A DNA stretch of 64,000 bases. Origin: a phage. Location of the stretch: assembly GCA_036252695.1 (NCBI GenBank), contig GCA_036252695.1_4122.1, one strand, 5' to 3'. Shown one piece after another: positions 5,402 through 28,138 of this stretch. Within the stretch, counting starts at the first letter, position 1. The number at the start of each line of letters is the position of its first letter. The position numbers were made by a program, and so were the translations under genes. The notes beneath the pieces were generated by a model. It worked only from the letters and a program-made list of their open reading frames with translations, was not told the origin of the DNA and made no database searches.

Positions 5402-6526
5402 TTAATTATCTAAGCCACCAATTACACTGAACTGTGTGGTAACGTCTGAACTATTATCTATGTAAGTTCTTCTACCAACATAATATAGTTGTCCTTTTGC
5501 TTGAATAAAAGTTACGGTCCCTGTATTAAATGATATAATATCATTGTATGTAATGTCAGGTGGTAGTGATGCTGATAACGCAGTAACTTTACTTAATGCA
5601 GCACTAGTACTACCATTTATACCAGCAGCAATACTACCAGTACCATAGAACTTATTATCTTTACCAATGAATACGTTGGCTGATGCTTGTGTAGCTGATG
5701 TTATTGCCTTACCAATTTGGAATGCGGTTCCTATGGTGTATGGTGTGCTCCTGGCAGCGTCTATGCTTTGTGTATATCCATCCCCTAGCTGACCATTAAC
5801 TTTGTCACCACATGAGTATAGAGTACCATTGAGGCTGTATATGATCCCACGGTTAGAGAAGCTAACAGCTTCTGCATTAGTCCATACTGGTGCGGTGTAT
5901 GAGTTTACACGACTAGCGGTAGTTCCTAGACCTAGTATACCATATGTGTTATCACCACATCCAAACCATTGTCCAGAACTGTTTTGATAGAACACTGAAC
6001 GTTCTGTTGATTCCATGCGTACAGCATCCACTGCACCACTTTTAACGAACGAAGTGGATGAGGATGTAGTACCAGTACCCAATGCACCATAAGTGTTTGT
6101 ACCAATCGCATATATTGATCCTAGTGGTGTCATAACACGTATGCAGTTATATCCCAATTGAACTTTACATTCAAATAGGTTGTCCCATATTTCAGGAACA
6201 GCAGAAAATAAGTTTGTAATTTCGAACCATGATGTTGTCGAATCAGTTAATCCAATACTGCTTTTGTTTCCTAAAATGAAAACAGTTTTGTCCTTCTTAA
6301 TTATCCATGATGATAGGAAACCTATCTCACAGCTATGAACATTTGATTCTATTTGGGTAATATAATACTTAACTGTGTTATCACCCATGAATGCCGCAGC
6401 ACCTGATGCAAAAAGGTTTCCAGTTTGTTTATTTAAAATGTAGTTATTGTTTCCATATACACTAACATCATAAGAACTTTCTTGTTTTTCGTTCCCATAA
6501 TCAAATAACAATACGAAAGGTAACAT
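5402..6526 (-). CDS. Fam-P beta-propeller paralog (RCC1-like repeats), N-term MLPFVLLFDYGN
   Basis: 374-aa ORF; repeated GxNxxGxLGxG motifs (e.g. CGDKVNGQLGDG); N-terminal tag variant; SD aaggag. Confidence 0.8.
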   Translation of the reverse strand: MLPFVLLFDYGNEKQESSYDVSVYGNNNYILNKQTGNLFASGAAAFMGDNTVKYYITQIESNVHSCEIGFLSSWIIKKDKTVFILGNKSSIGLTDSTTSWFEITNLFSAVPEIWDNLFECKVQLGYNCIRVMTPLGSIYAIGTNTYGALGTGTTSSSTSFVKSGAVDAVRMESTERSVFYQNSSGQWFGCGDNTYGILGLGTTASRVNSYTAPVWTNAEAVSFSNRGIIYSLNGTLYSCGDKVNGQLGDGYTQSIDAARSTPYTIGTAFQIGKAITSATQASANVFIGKDNKFYGTGSIAAGINGSTSAALSKVTALSASLPPDITYNDIISFNTGTVTFIQAKGQLYYVGRRTYIDNSSDVTTQFSVIGGLDN

Positions 6527-6603
6527 GATAAAATCTCCTTGTGTTATACTTTATTTAATCATTTTATAATGTACAATTTTACAGCGATTTAATTGAGGTA
6601 CTC

Positions 6604-7254
6604 ATGAATAAAAGAAGTAAGTTCTATCAAGAATATTTCACTAAACAGAAACGATTCACAAAAAAATACTTTACATCATCCCACCGACCAGTTGCAAGTT
6701 ACAAACGTCCTAATACTAACTATCTTACTGGTGGCAAGTTTAGTGCAAAGTTCGAATTACTTATGCGTGAAAAGAATATCAAGATGCATTACGCAGAGAC
6801 AAGAAAAAACTCATCAATTATTTGTTCTGATTTTCTTGAGTACGGTTGTTTAACTTATAAATTCAATGATGTATATTTGTATATTGATGTTGATTGTAAC
6901 AGTACTCGTATGTTTGAGATTTCAATTCACCCAAATCACAACCGTTATATAAACATTAACTTGATTGATAAAGTACTGATTGGTATATCTAGTACTGATG
7001 GTGGTGGATTTGAATTTATTGCTTCAAAATATGATGAAGATTTCGTACTTTACCCAGTACTTGATGATGTGAAAGATATTCTCAATTCATTAAAAGGAAG
7101 TCAATACAAATTATCTGAAGAACAGCTATTTCAGTACTCACTTATTCATGATGATATCGAGATATACTTAGAGTGTGCGAGAATCTTGGAGTATCTTTAT
7201 AATGAACTAACAACAACTGGTAAAGTGACTGCATTCACATTATATAATATGTAA
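6604..7254 (+). CDS. Fam-F hypothetical protein (EEQLFQYSLIHDD motif)
   Basis: 216-aa ORF, TATAAT box and SD gagg upstream; motif shared with 30241, 60449, 61126, 62364. Confidence 0.65.
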   Translation: MNKRSKFYQEYFTKQKRFTKKYFTSSHRPVASYKRPNTNYLTGGKFSAKFELLMREKNIKMHYAETRKNSSIICSDFLEYGCLTYKFNDVYLYIDVDCNSTRMFEISIHPNHNRYININLIDKVLIGISSTDGGGFEFIASKYDEDFVLYPVLDDVKDILNSLKGSQYKLSEEQLFQYSLIHDDIEIYLECARILEYLYNELTTTGKVTAFTLYNM

Positions 7255-7261
7255 AAGAAAA

Positions 7262-7280
7262 GCCAGTACATAGTACTGGC
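7262..7280. terminator. intrinsic terminator hairpin gccagtac-ata-gtactggc
   Basis: Perfect 8-bp stem between + gene end 7254 and - gene end 7287. Confidence 0.6.
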
Positions 7281-25710: not shown

Positions 25711-25780
25711 ATTTCCTCCTTTATCCATTATACTATATTTAATACAAAAAGAAATGCCAGTATCAAGTACTGGCCTGTAT

Positions 25781-26917
25781 TTAAATTATTGTTGGTAATG
25801 GTAATGGTATAAATTCATCACTCGATGGCAAACCATATAACGTAGTTGCATTTCCAGAATAATACCATCCCGTTGAATCTTGCACTATAGATAGATAGGC
25901 TAACGATGCCGCCTTTGTTATATCATTAAACCCGTGTGGTACTTCTTTAAATGTAGATGAATATTCAACACCAGGGTCACCAGAAGATAGTGTAGTGTTA
26001 GTACCAGCATAATATAAAGTATTGCCATCTGTGCTTATAGCAAAAGAAAGAACAGAGTTATTCATATCACTCCACAAATCCCTAAACCTGCCTCTATATC
26101 CGGTTAATTCTGTATACGAATATACGTTTGTGGTATTTGAAGAAGAATTACCTAGTTGATAATTTCTATTTTGACCTGCTATAACATATCTAGTGCTACC
26201 ATTAGTATCATAATATAATATACCAGAGTTTAATGTTGACATACCAACTGCACATTCGGATGCAAATTCGGGAGCAGAGTACAAATTATAAGAAGTTAAA
26301 TTTGTGCTAGTACCCAATGCTCCAGTATTGCTTATACCACAGCGGTAGTAACCACCAGTAGTACTAGAATATATAGTACCAGGTAGAGAAGTGTAGAATT
26401 TTGAAACATTTGACGCAACTAATACAGCATTAACTTTGCTTGTTGAACCACCAAATGTTTGGTTATTATCATATCCTTTAGCATATAATCTATTATCATT
26501 TGTAAGTAATCCTACACAATAATAAGTCATTTTCATTTCACGTACTGTGCTTAGATTCACTGCACTAAATTGTGTCGTAACATCTTTCCATGTAACAACT
26601 TTAGAACTTGTCGAACCACCAGATTCAAACCATTCATCACCACAGTAGAAAATTTTATTATCTACAGTTAATACAACGCATACTAAATTACTAGCACAAG
26701 CAAACTTAACATCATCTCTAACTTTAGTCCACTCGGTTACATTCACTATAGTATCAGTTCCTATACCTAATTTGCCATACGCATTATTACCACGCACCCA
26801 TAATTCATTATCCTCGGTTATTAGTAATAATGAATTAGTACCTGCAACAATATCACGAACTTTTAGTTTTTCTGGTGCTACGTTCCCATAATTTAACATT
26901 CTAACAAAAGGTAACAT
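25781..26917 (-). CDS. Fam-P beta-propeller paralog, N-term MLPFVRMLNYGN
   Basis: Start at MLPF Met with aaggagg SD. Confidence 0.85.
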   Translation of the reverse strand: MLPFVRMLNYGNVAPEKLKVRDIVAGTNSLLLITEDNELWVRGNNAYGKLGIGTDTIVNVTEWTKVRDDVKFACASNLVCVVLTVDNKIFYCGDEWFESGGSTSSKVVTWKDVTTQFSAVNLSTVREMKMTYYCVGLLTNDNRLYAKGYDNNQTFGGSTSKVNAVLVASNVSKFYTSLPGTIYSSTTGGYYRCGISNTGALGTSTNLTSYNLYSAPEFASECAVGMSTLNSGILYYDTNGSTRYVIAGQNRNYQLGNSSSNTTNVYSYTELTGYRGRFRDLWSDMNNSVLSFAISTDGNTLYYAGTNTTLSSGDPGVEYSSTFKEVPHGFNDITKAASLAYLSIVQDSTGWYYSGNATTLYGLPSSDEFIPLPLPTII

Positions 26918-26989
26918 ATTCCCTCCTTTATTCATTATACTTTATTTAATACAAATAAGAATGCCTGTATCGAGTACTGGCATATTAAT

Positions 26990-28138
26990 TCATTGTATAA
27001 ATGACATATCTACTTCTGTATAATTAAGAACGTTCTGTCCAGAAATACCACCCATTACTACTATTGCAAGGCCACAATAATATAATTTTCCAGTATCCGT
27101 AAGTATAAGTGATCCAGATGGACTGCGTACCAAATCACACGAACTATTAAAAGAAGTATAAGAAGGAGTATAGGAGTACTGATTATTATTATTACCAACA
27201 CCTAATTGCCCAAACCCATTCGTTCCAGAAGCATATAGAACTTCATCTGCTTTGACAATATGTGATGCCATGTTACCAACACAAGTATATAGAGTATAAA
27301 CTCCTGAACTCAATAATGTCGGAGTTTTATATTGTATATCTGTAGATGTAGAAGTACCACCTGTACCAAATTCGTTCCCATATTGTGCACCGAACTGTTT
27401 ACCACAAGCGTACAAATTATTATCCGATTTGATAAAAAATGTACTCTGATAACTTACATTAAAATCTATAACATCCGAAGAAATCATCGTCACCCCAGTA
27501 ATAGAAGTTTGATTACCCGTGCCCAACTGATAGTAATAGTTAAAACCACAACCCCATAAAGTATTATCTTCTTTTAGGTATATGTTACCAACTGCCTTTT
27601 TAACCGAAGTTATAGTATCTATCCTTTTGAATGTGTTAAAAGAATTAATGTTTGTACCATCACCAAATGATGATAGGTTCGAGTTATTGTTCGCTCCACA
27701 ACAATACAATGTACCATCGTTTGTTATCAAATTTACCTTCATATCATAAAAACTACTCATGTACTTTATATCAGAAACATTAATACCACCTGATGTTATC
27801 CACGTGGTACAGTCCGTCCACAAAGTTTTTCTATCAGTTACACCAGTGAATGCCTTCGTGTTACCAGTGATAAAAACTTTTCCAGTACCTTTCTCTTCAT
27901 ACAATTGACAATCACTACTGTTATCTTCCAATAGAACTCGTTTAACATTCTCCGCACAAAGAATAAATTTACTCGATGCTACACCTGTACCAGTACCCCA
28001 ATTCGTCGCAGAAGATGCATACAACTTATCAGTATAAGTATCATGAAGATACATAGAATCACTGGAATATATTTTAAAACGCCCTTCTTTCTCAGGTATA
28101 ATATTCCCATAATCAAACATTCTAACAAAAGGTAACAT
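26990..28138 (-). CDS. Fam-P beta-propeller paralog, N-term MLPFVRMFDYGN
   Basis: First (most upstream) gene of the minus-strand array; paralog of 19789..20937. Confidence 0.85.
   Translation of the reverse strand: MLPFVRMFDYGNIIPEKEGRFKIYSSDSMYLHDTYTDKLYASSATNWGTGTGVASSKFILCAENVKRVLLEDNSSDCQLYEEKGTGKVFITGNTKAFTGVTDRKTLWTDCTTWITSGGINVSDIKYMSSFYDMKVNLITNDGTLYCCGANNNSNLSSFGDGTNINSFNTFKRIDTITSVKKAVGNIYLKEDNTLWGCGFNYYYQLGTGNQTSITGVTMISSDVIDFNVSYQSTFFIKSDNNLYACGKQFGAQYGNEFGTGGTSTSTDIQYKTPTLLSSGVYTLYTCVGNMASHIVKADEVLYASGTNGFGQLGVGNNNNQYSYTPSYTSFNSSCDLVRSPSGSLILTDTGKLYYCGLAIVVMGGISGQNVLNYTEVDMSFIQ

Follow-up and report, generated by a model that had tools for sequence, protein, structure and literature searches.

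A shared 12-residue N-terminal tag on a tandem array of propeller and fibre-tip-like proteins in an Escherichia coli jumbo phage

Why would a phage begin 19 otherwise divergent proteins with the same dozen residues? The question is raised by a 64-kb stretch of contig GCA_036252695.1_4122.1, analyzed as a whole and called here the window, whose source is an Asteriusvirus-type E. coli jumbo phage. Between positions 5402 and 28138 the minus strand carries an array of 19 genes, numbered here as members 1 to 19. Their products all start with an MLPF-type peptide of 12 residues, hereafter the tag. The bodies behind it are ~22-30% identical in pairwise comparisons, versus a mean pairwise tag identity of 81%. 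We propose, with moderate confidence, that the array encodes late-made, shuffleable ligand-binding heads that are docked to the virion by their common N-terminal peptide, probably as external accessory adhesins.

Anatomy of the array and folds of its bodies

A sequence-only reading of this DNA had placed 19 genes at 5402-28138. Both the listing of open reading frames (ORFs) and a scan of all six frames of the window bear this out to the base, position 28138 being the ATG of member 1 and position 5402 the stop of member 19. The listing puts the 19 minus-strand ORFs at 5402-28156, and its longer calls (e.g. MNKGGNMLPF...) are read-through of the conserved ribosome-binding site (RBS) AAAGGAGG. 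The scan recovered 19 minus-strand ORFs with an MLPF start, all in the array, and no MLPF-type start elsewhere in the window in any frame. The genes had been described as consecutive, which nearly holds: one unrelated plus-strand ORF lies between members 18 and 19. The features of the array are as follows.

Member 1: 26990..28138, minus; tag MLPFVRMFDYGN, RCC1-like propeller, 382 aa
Member 2: 25781..26917, minus; tag MLPFVRMLNYGN, RCC1-like propeller, 378 aa
Member 3: 24517..25710, minus; tag MLPFARMVKYGN, RCC1-like propeller, 397 aa
Member 4: 23335..24507, minus; tag MLPFVRMFDYGN, RCC1-like propeller, 390 aa
Member 5: 22129..23259, minus; tag MLPFVRMFDYGN, divergent RCC1-like propeller, 376 aa
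Member 6: 21009..22118, minus; tag MLPFVRMLEYGN, RCC1-like propeller, 369 aa
Member 7: 19789..20937, minus; tag MLPFVRLFDYGN, RCC1-like propeller, 382 aa
Member 8: 18559..19713, minus; tag MLPFVRMFDYGN, RCC1-like propeller, 384 aa
Member 9: 17342..18484, minus; tag MLPFARMVKYGN, RCC1-like seven-bladed propeller (AlphaFold model), 380 aa
Member 10: 16080..17270, minus; tag MLPFVRMFDYGN, RCC1-like propeller, 396 aa
Member 11: 15271..16008, minus; tag MLPFARMVKYGN, TNF-like/polyglycine ("brush") domain, 245 aa
Member 12: 14024..15199, minus; tag MLPFARMVKYGN, RCC1-like propeller, 391 aa
Member 13: 12752..13939, minus; tag MLPFGRMFDYGN, RCC1-like propeller, 395 aa
Member 14: 11794..12741, minus; tag MLPFVRMLEYGN, Kelch-like propeller (Pfam Kelch families, phrog_12615), 315 aa
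Member 15: 10830..11720, minus; tag MLPFGRMLSYGN, Kelch-like propeller, 296 aa
Member 16: 9711..10820, minus; tag MLPFVRMFDYGN, RCC1-like propeller, 369 aa
Member 17: 8501..9631, minus; tag MLPFARMVKYGN, RCC1-like propeller, 376 aa
Member 18: 7287..8423, minus; tag MLPFARMVKYGN, divergent RCC1-like propeller, 378 aa
Interrupting ORF: 6604..7254, plus; 216 aa, phrog_34359, without tag, not a family member
Member 19: 5402..6526, minus; degenerate tag MLPFVLLFDYGN, RCC1-like propeller, 374 aa

The interrupting ORF keeps its position in fEgEco12 (g581) and phAPEC6 (gp011c), and gp011c is absent from the phAPEC6 virion proteome.

The bodies had been read as mostly RCC1-like, with Kelch-like and Gly-rich members among them, and Pfam agrees; the sizes, given as 300-400 aa, in fact run from 245 to 397 aa. 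Pfam assigns 16 members to RCC1-like families and two to Kelch-like ones (10830-11720 and 11794-12741), and the Gly-rich member (15271-16008) has no match. Fifteen of the 19 pass the gathering score for RCC1 or RCC1_2. Member 18 falls slightly under the threshold (19.9 versus 22), yet it matches WD40_RLD at an expect value (E) of 1.3e-8; neither the two Kelch members nor the Gly-rich member has an RCC1 or RCC1_2 match. Two paralog pairs are closer than the rest, members 1 and 7 (69%) and members 3 and 13, whose bodies are 47% identical and whose tag subtypes differ.

Structure modeling supports the predicted propeller fold. The AlphaFold2 (AF2) model of member 9, the one RCC1-like member modeled, is a seven-bladed RCC1-like propeller with a predicted local distance difference test score (pLDDT) of 90.6 and a predicted template modeling score (pTM) of 0.88. 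A Foldseek search with this model returned UVR8 as the best match (template modeling score [TM] 0.75), along with RPGR, HERC2 and RCC1 (TM 0.63-0.75, E down to 6e-21). The Gly-rich member 11 was modeled equally well (pLDDT 90.0, pTM 0.88). Its predicted fold combines a TNF-like and a glycine-rich domain, as in the fibre tips Pam3 gp24 and S16 gp38, and the model has 15 disordered residues in front of the TNF-like domain and no N-terminal helical docking domain. In Pam3 gp24, an N-terminal helical bundle serves as the baseplate-docking domain (PMC9608196), and polyglycine "brush" domains are considered to be antireceptors (PMC13243795). Searching the PDB with a sequence profile revealed no significant homology of the Gly-rich member to solved fibre proteins, and its homologs provide weak links to Pfam Gly_rich_2. 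We found no solved structure of tagged bodies or of their homologs in rV5-like phages that could show docking.

RCC1-like and Kelch-like propellers are classic ligand-binding scaffolds, as are the concanavalin A (ConA)-like lectins found in relatives (see below). The member proteins are not basic (isoelectric point mostly 5-8, K+R 5-7%, S+T+N+G ~40%), and such a neutral-to-acidic, K/R-poor and S/T/N/G-rich makeup is unlike that of DNA-condensing proteins and typical of phage fibre proteins. Folds and composition together would tilt the balance toward external display.

Some gene calls in this region deserve correction. The Val-rich ORF MVVQSLVVV... at 15312-15620 (minus) is an out-of-frame artefact within the Gly-rich gene. 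In phAPEC6 the same artefact is annotated as gp004 (7716-8018), and the real tagged Gly-rich gene (start 7325, 244 aa) is unannotated, as are further tagged ORFs at 3, 2434 and 6063. Additionally, phAPEC6 gp002 is called 36 codons too long, by read-through of the cassette described below.

Constraint, spread and recombination of the tag

Residues M1, L2, P3, F4, Y10, G11 and N12 are invariant in the 19 members. Variation is confined to positions 5 (V, A or G), 6 (R, with a single L), 7 (M, with two cases of L), 8 (F, V or L) and 9 (D, K, E, S or N). The 12-residue shared start is thus real, and the motif first given for it, MLPF[AV]RM[VF][KD]YGN, is too strict at positions 5 to 9. Two main subtypes, ARMVKYGN (6 genes) and V/GRM(F/L)(D/E/S/N)YGN (13 genes), are interleaved along the array. 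Codon choice within the tag is strongly biased. Over the 19 copies, every codon difference at the seven invariant residues is synonymous (CCT/CCA, TTT/TTC, TAT/TAC, GGG/GGA, AAT/AAC).

The tag is followed by a short linker, mostly Pro-rich (IAPxP), which leads into the first propeller strand. In the AF2 models, residues 1-14 of member 9 and residues 1-15 of the Gly-rich member 11 are disordered (pLDDT<50), and the tag is accordingly predicted to be a separate disordered module. A role as a propeller "velcro" strand is ruled out, the tag being unstructured in the propeller model and disordered on the unrelated Gly-rich fold as well.

The tag is present in every RaK2-like genus examined, with the clade consensus M-[LIF]-P-[FI]-x-[RK]-h-h-x-Y-[GA]-N, where h is hydrophobic. 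Translated searches (tblastn) against distant RaK2-like phages align from residue 1, unlike those against unrelated phages. Alignments to RCC1-like proteins from outside this group (Clostridioides, Listeria, Synechococcus), proteins whose N termini were not read, start at query residue 11-39. Within phAPEC6, tag-bearing ORFs are limited to the array in the 268 kb scanned of 352 kb (all but 218-302 kb). The tagged genes of more distant relatives are listed here.

GAP32 gp1 (GAP32_001): tag MLPFSRIIQYGN; RCC1-like
GAP32 gp2 (GAP32_002): tag MLPFARIFRYGD; weak ConA-like lectin match
Serratia BF gp375-380: tag MLPFPIIS; RCC1-like and Gly-rich
Yersinia fHe-Yen9-04 g527-531: tags MLPFPIIS, MLPFSIISHYGN and MLPFPVIVKYGN; RCC1-like, one of them annotated "BNR" but RCC1-like by Pfam
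Xanthomonas XaC1, three genes: tag MFPIPIIS(KYGN); one RCC1-like match, the classification covering that one
CBB CBB_548-552: tag MLPF[SPA][RI]..[EK]Y[GA]N; Laminin_G_3 lectin and Kelch
361-kb metagenomic phage, 14-gene array: tag MIPF..Y[GA]N on every gene; RCC1-like, Kelch, Laminin_G_3, Gly-rich and phrog_6011-like

No RCC1-like homolog is reported for CBB (PMC5259590). Overall, no fewer than five unrelated body families bear the tag. The genes of Eneladusvirus, XaC1 and GAP32 form tight operons that lack the cassette and have unrelated upstream DNA, and the tag is kept with synonymous codon variation. Because these operon genera keep the tag despite unrelated upstream DNA, its conservation does not appear to be a by-product of a regulatory cassette. 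Likewise, since the invariant residues vary synonymously only, in the operon genera as well, the constraint on the tag acts at the protein level. The tag dialects are genome specific (MLPF..YGN, MIPF, MLPFPIIS, MFPIPIIS), a pattern that fits co-evolution with one partner, gene conversion, or both.

A different short N terminus is found in rV5-like phages (Vequintavirinae, ~150 kb) on a lectin-like virion protein and on Gly-rich homologs: MEEMLLTGG, MQEMLLGGL, MFEMMLATS, MLEML.. or MIELL... (GAP31 stretch 1453-3270; 4MG stretch 1453-2103). The motif is carried by an adjacent unrelated uncharacterized protein, GAP31_106, as well, and judging from these sequences MxEMLL may be a second lineage-specific docking tag. 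The Gly-rich homolog of PVP-SE1, gene 19, is solitary, lies in a replication region and offers no functional clue.

In the window, the DNA around the tag is conserved too. An independent repeat finder detected a block of 50-117 nt, centred on each start codon at ~1.2-kb spacing, as the sole DNA repeat along the array. Before 14 of the 19 genes stands a near-identical cassette, composed of the hairpin GCCAGTACnnnGTACTGGC with a T-run, then TTGTATTAAATATAGTATAATGAATAAAGGAGG, then the ATG; the remaining five have an RBS only after the preceding gene, or variant elements. Member 4, for example, has only an RBS upstream and shares a transcript with member 3. The conserved block is continuous, running from the hairpin through the promoter and the RBS into the first 36 coding nucleotides. 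The elements, all on the minus strand except the terminator, are these.

Member 9, archetypal cassette: 18485..18552, minus; hairpin 18528-18552, T-run, late-promoter-like TTAAATATAGTATAAT at 18502-18517, RBS AAAGGAGG abutting the ATG
Member 18, cassette: 8424..8489, minus; hairpin 8467-8489, promoter 8440-8455
Member 17, cassette: 9632..9698, minus
Member 15, variant cassette: 11721..11787, minus; TTAAATACATTATAAT
Member 13, cassette: 13940..14016, minus; imperfect hairpin
Member 12, cassette: 15200..15265, minus
Member 11, cassette: 16009..16076, minus
Member 10, cassette: 17271..17335, minus
Member 8, cassette: 19714..19780, minus
Member 7, cassette: 20938..21002, minus
Member 5, variant cassette: 23260..23330, minus; AAATACATTATAAT
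Member 3, cassette: 25711..25775, minus
Member 2, cassette: 26918..26985, minus; TTAAATAAAGTATAAT
Member 1, cassette: 28139..28210, minus; GTAAATATGATATAAT, degenerate hairpin
Member 19, promoter-like variant upstream: 6527..6558, minus; TTAAATAAAGTATAAC
Array end, bidirectional hairpin terminator: 5371..5397, no strand assigned

The 16-mer TTAAATATAGTATAAT occurs 13 times in the window, always within the array, versus 0.54 expected, and 15 of the 19 members have a TAAATA core 31-36 nt upstream. In phAPEC6, which encodes a late sigma factor, a T4-late-like TAAATA core lies 23-64 nt upstream of 22 of 29 genes that are structural or were detected by mass spectrometry (MS), versus 3.2% of random 90-nt windows. 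Because the array cassettes share this core with phAPEC6 structural genes, late, gene-by-gene transcription of the array is likely. The cassettes are ruled out as sigma-70 promoters: they lack a -35 element and were not picked up by a sigma-70 scan, which gave 90 sites versus 100.8 expected and hence no excess. In phAPEC6 itself, structural genes have the T4-like late core (TA)TAAATA ~37-46 nt upstream of the ATG, and the neighbours gp224c and gp264c instead have textbook sigma-70 promoters (TTGACA-17-TATAAT). This contrast is a usable basis for a genome-wide map of timing classes.

The nearest records to the window are fEgEco12, WPEC5, 121Q and phAPEC6. Coverage of the array in one place peaks at 34% for any single record, that of a flanking 22-kb block at 66%, and a scan of IMG/VR with the tag DNA returned 121Q and one 59-kb contig only. 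In the two ortholog pairs examined, DNA identity is 97-100% from codon 13 on and ~78% within the tag, and the upstream DNA is unrelated; the 36-nt tag differs at 7-8 positions between orthologs with near-identical bodies. Member 16, for instance, is 96% identical to phAPEC6 gp009 in its body and 97-100% in DNA from codon 13, and it carries the VRMFDYGN tag where gp009 has ARMVKYGN; the upstream DNA differs as well. The tag subtype likewise differs for member 1 (97% identical to phAPEC6 gp549, tag ARMIKYGN) and member 10 (phAPEC6 ortholog at 90%, tag ARMMNYGN). These alignments place the recombination breakpoints between related phages exactly at the tag/body junction.

Member 6 (21009-22118) is a different kind of mosaic. 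Compared to its 121Q ortholog, DNA identity is 97-100% over the first ~400 nt, ~55% across the 3' half and 100% at the end, which points to segmental replacement within the body besides the tag junction.

The repertoire differs accordingly in size: 19 members in the window, 15 in fEgEco12, 11 of them at least 89% orthologous to window members, and 15 tagged ORFs in the phAPEC6 record, ~14 of them distinct given its terminal duplication. At one extreme, member 19 is 99.5% identical to fEgEco12 g580. At the other, member 5 has no close ortholog in fEgEco12, phAPEC6 or 121Q, and none of the three arrays compared (fEgEco12, phAPEC6 and part of 121Q) holds an equivalent of the two Kelch genes. The fEgEco12 paper reports RCC1-like genes that differ between near-identical phages.

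Virion association and the role of the array

Published proteomics from four independent studies place tagged members in purified virions. The MS analysis of phAPEC6 lists six "DNA condensation/hypothetical" proteins of 41.39, 40.25, 41.36, 30.06, 39.30 and 41.39 kDa (PMC7247149, Table 1). We matched these masses to GenBank gp003, 005, 006, 007, 009 and 010, and all six are tagged. Three of the detected proteins are 84-96% orthologs of window members: gp005 of member 9 (84%), gp006 of member 12 (86%) and gp009 of member 16 (96%). CBB_548, 549, 551, 552 and 553 are MS-verified structural proteins of CBB, and GAP32 gp1 is a virion protein (PMC5259590). In ghost particles of Eneladusvirus (Erwinia phages), several "DNA condensation" proteins gave 8-25 spectral counts and a "PE-PGRS" (Gly-rich) protein 1-13, versus 834-1337 for the major capsid protein (MCP), and ghost-particle members reach ~1-2% of the MCP counts. 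Each member is therefore a low-copy virion component, since tagged members are detected in phAPEC6, CBB and Eneladusvirus and ghost spectral counts are few. Finding MLPFAR, MVK or YGNIAPVPVVPTIK peptides in virion MS data would mean that the tag is retained.

What is observed is the layout of the proteins, their folds, the disorder of the tag in models, the constraint on it at the protein level, its spread through the clade, the recombination junctions and, from published work, the virion association; docking, outer location, adhesion and late timing are deduced from these. Each protein combines the 12-residue tag, a short, usually Pro-rich linker and a compact binding domain, which is an RCC1-like or Kelch-like propeller or a TNF-like/polyglycine fibre tip, and in relatives also a ConA-like lectin. 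The most likely role of the tag is that of a docking peptide. Disordered alone, it would probably become ordered upon binding one common acceptor protein of the particle, and sharing this acceptor would let unrelated heads mount on one site. Candidate acceptors are the hair-like appendages or tail fibres, the capsid fibres at hexamer centres of phAPEC6 and CBB, or the tail periphery. Displayed outside, the heads would serve as accessory adhesins that recognize different surface ligands. The hairpin terminator, T4-type late promoter, RBS and 36-nt tag would make most genes independent late transcription units. With the cassette as the only homology between members, recombination at the tag/body junction would swap, add and delete heads among co-infecting relatives. 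The sequence-only reading had seen a repertoire of binding proteins behind a constant N terminus, and the binding folds, the separate disordered tag and the virion presence speak for it; of the three functions it offered, the evidence leans to external receptor binding or decoration over ejected anti-defence proteins.

Several points weigh against our proposal. The disorder of the tag in AF2 monomer models is expected of any terminal peptide, and gene conversion via the conserved cassette could by itself keep the tags alike within a genome. That ARMVKYGN and VRMFDYGN coexist, and swap on the same body, is slightly awkward for co-evolution with a single site; this objection would be eased if the variable positions 5, 8 and 9 make no contact with the acceptor, which may be the case. 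As to location, MS does not tell external from internal proteins, and ghosts made by freeze-thawing may still contain the latter. Finally, the likeness to Pam3 is at the fold level only, the sequence profile finding nothing, and the adhesin role is deduced from fold classes alone.

The main rival explanation, which we consider unlikely, is that the tag is a T4-like capsid-targeting sequence (CTS), by which diverse proteins are packed in the prohead and ejected with the DNA as anti-defence or takeover factors, making the array an arms-race locus. It would account for the hypervariability of the locus and the low copy number in virions, and these phages do possess an inner body as well as a prohead scaffold/protease gene of T4 type. 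RCC1-like propellers can, moreover, act as tight protein inhibitors, as in BLIP-II. However, the tag is not similar to the T4 CTS, no conserved (L/I)-x-E protease site follows it, and five different residues (D, K, E, S, N) occur at its position 9. Among the bodies are a receptor-binding module of tail-fibre type and folds of the lectin and Kelch kinds. The proteins are large and not basic, and homologs were found in ghost particles devoid of DNA. It is on the protease-site feature and the body type that internal packaging fails. Less probable still is the view that the shared N terminus has no protein function and reflects duplication and gene conversion of a 5' regulatory and translation-initiation cassette. 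The unbroken run of conserved DNA from the hairpin into the first 36 nt, the homogenization of tags within genomes and their swapping between orthologs, and the strong codon bias of the tag all suit it. Such a hitch-hiker would nonetheless hardly show synonymous-only variation at the invariant residues, conservation of the protein sequence across genera with unrelated upstream DNA and cassette-free operons, or a tag kept on five unrelated folds while the bodies fell to ~25% identity or were replaced.

We give comparably little credence, and slightly less, to a tag that is read by an assembly or quality-control factor (a phage chaperone or a Clp-type protease) or that polymerizes members by donor-strand exchange into hair-like filaments. 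phAPEC6 does encode GroES-like and Clp-like proteins, and flexible "hairs" occur on these phages. The tag also resembles a pilin N-terminal extension: it is short and partly hydrophobic, tends to form a strand and precedes a linker. Against polymerization, one acceptor groove could not be common to five unrelated folds. The members are stable virion components, and nothing links the tag to chaperones or proteases. The existing annotation, followed by a suggestion in the phAPEC6 paper, makes the members DNA-condensation or inner-body proteins, which we regard as very improbable. RCC1 homology, virion presence and the inner body seen in phAPEC6 are what it draws on. The name, however, comes from eukaryotic RCC1, a Ran exchange factor, and the fold is a generic binding scaffold, to which the RCC1-like domains (RLDs) of UVR8, RPGR and HERC2 are closest. 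The proteins are neutral to acidic with few K and R residues, bodies of lectin, Kelch and fibre-tip type share their tag and locus, and CBB has a tagged array and no RCC1-like member. Both the DNA-condensation and the regulatory hitch-hiker readings are poorly supported.

A broader version of the docking proposal can be put forward tentatively. Lineage-specific N-terminal peptides, MLPF..YGN in RaK2-like and MxEMLL.. in rV5-like phages, could form a general "plug-and-display" system of large myoviruses, in which any binding module that gained the peptide would be mounted on a shared acceptor of the particle, with the tag DNA doubling as the recombination joint through which modules are exchanged; we see this as possible rather than probable. 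If true, such phages would wear a combinatorial, rapidly shuffled adhesin coat, which might explain the "hairs", and the tag would be a 12-residue handle for loading foreign proteins onto jumbo-phage virions.

Neighbouring arrays and comparison with known systems

Two further arrays of paralogs adjoin the tagged one. Directly next to it, at 3946-5365 (plus), lie four tandem paralogous small membrane-protein genes (104-123 aa, phrog_33258). The tagged array has such neighbours in two relatives as well, CBB_543-547 ("putative membrane proteins") in CBB and g573-g579 in fEgEco12, and the two arrays are therefore syntenic partners across genera. On the other side, divergent from the tagged array, 28241-33232 (plus) holds ~25 tiny paralogous ORFs of 59-70 aa with a common N terminus, M(H/N)KEYY(I)xKL, and a C-terminal ..Y..VL.LI.. 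motif; their equivalents in fEgEco12, g596-g613, are annotated as hypothetical proteins. Each of the two large arrays contains one plus-strand ORF of ~217 aa, at 6604-7254 and 30241-30900, and the similarity between these two is marginal (E 0.004 over 55 aa). The stretch at 33300-35200, between the tiny ORFs and the downstream plus-strand genes, is ORF-poor. No tRNA or Rfam family was detected there, nor anywhere else in the window.

The sequence-only reading had not recognized the array as a described system. Part of it is in fact on record: that RCC1-like genes are expanded in tandem in RaK2-like phages, and that their products occur in virions, has been published under the label "DNA condensation" (PMC7247149, PMC5259590, PMC7760394). 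The phAPEC6 paper counts eleven RCC1-like proteins, several of them in virions, and speculates on a DNA-organizing role (PMC7247149), and the CBB paper notes multicopy homologs in 121Q and PBECO4 (PMC5259590). Database records label the array genes "regulator of chromosome condensation" or "DNA condensation protein", and our literature search for the shared N terminus or a description of the system returned nothing beyond such "RCC1/DNA condensation" notes. What appears to be undescribed is the tag with its independence of fold, its clade dialects, the recombination module made of terminator, late promoter, RBS and tag, and the reinterpretation of the bodies as adhesin heads. Our proposal replaces a misleading "chromosome/DNA condensation regulator" label, copied across dozens of jumbo-phage genomes, by a testable model. 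Tag and heads are concrete candidates for identifying the hair-like and capsid fibres of phAPEC6/CBB-type phages and the acceptor. If docking is true, the engineering of therapeutic jumbo phages gains in the tag a minimal signal for display or loading, and host or niche range is likely to depend on the head repertoire.

With cellular RLD proteins (RCC1, UVR8, RPGR, HERC2) the array shares the seven-bladed propeller and Pfam RCC1/RCC1_2 repeats above threshold; in contrast, the phage offers no Ran or chromatin context, and none of the cellular RLDs that the protein search returned carries the tag. The fold of the Gly-rich member is that of the TNF-like and polyglycine fibre tips of Pam3 gp24, S16 gp38 and Bxb1 gp33 (PMC9608196, PMC13243795). 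Here, however, the 12-residue tag replaces the N-terminal helical bundle of Pam3 gp24, there is no sequence similarity, and the likeness concerns one of the 19 members.

The CTS of T4 reads MKTYQEFIAE. MLPFxRMxxYGN is unrelated to it, with no conserved Glu in or after the tag, and the bodies are not small and basic but 30-43 kDa binding folds of extracellular type, probably lying outside rather than within the DNA. The T-even internal proteins IPI, IPII and IPIII and Alt are nevertheless alike in carrying a short conserved N-terminal peptide on unrelated, fast-evolving virion proteins; further likenesses are the hyperplastic locus, the head-assembly lineage of T4 type and a peptide that directs virion incorporation, as it presumably does here (PMC3012670). 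The PeSL (early promoter and stem-loop) cassettes of T4-like phages are also units of terminator hairpin and promoter that flank variable genes and act as exchange points between otherwise unrelated sequences, and in the array, too, junctions coincide with the cassette (PMC2839356, PMC4122927). They differ in having an early sigma-70 promoter, where the array has a late-type TAAATA core without a -35 element. Furthermore, the block here extends via the RBS into 36 coding nucleotides, making the recombination joint a protein-module boundary. The PeSL idea can thus be widened to include late genes and a junction between protein domains.

In Klebsiella KP32-type systems with multiple receptor-binding proteins, the secondary receptor-binding proteins attach by a short conserved N-terminal peptide to a branching protein. 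These proteins number 2 to ~11 per phage and have trimeric beta-helix depolymerases as bodies, and the domain that accepts them is T4 gp10-like. These systems resemble the array in joining a constant N-terminal anchor to variable receptor-binding bodies in an exchangeable repertoire, and they differ in that the arrays considered here hold 14-19 bodies, mostly propellers and lectins of monomeric type.

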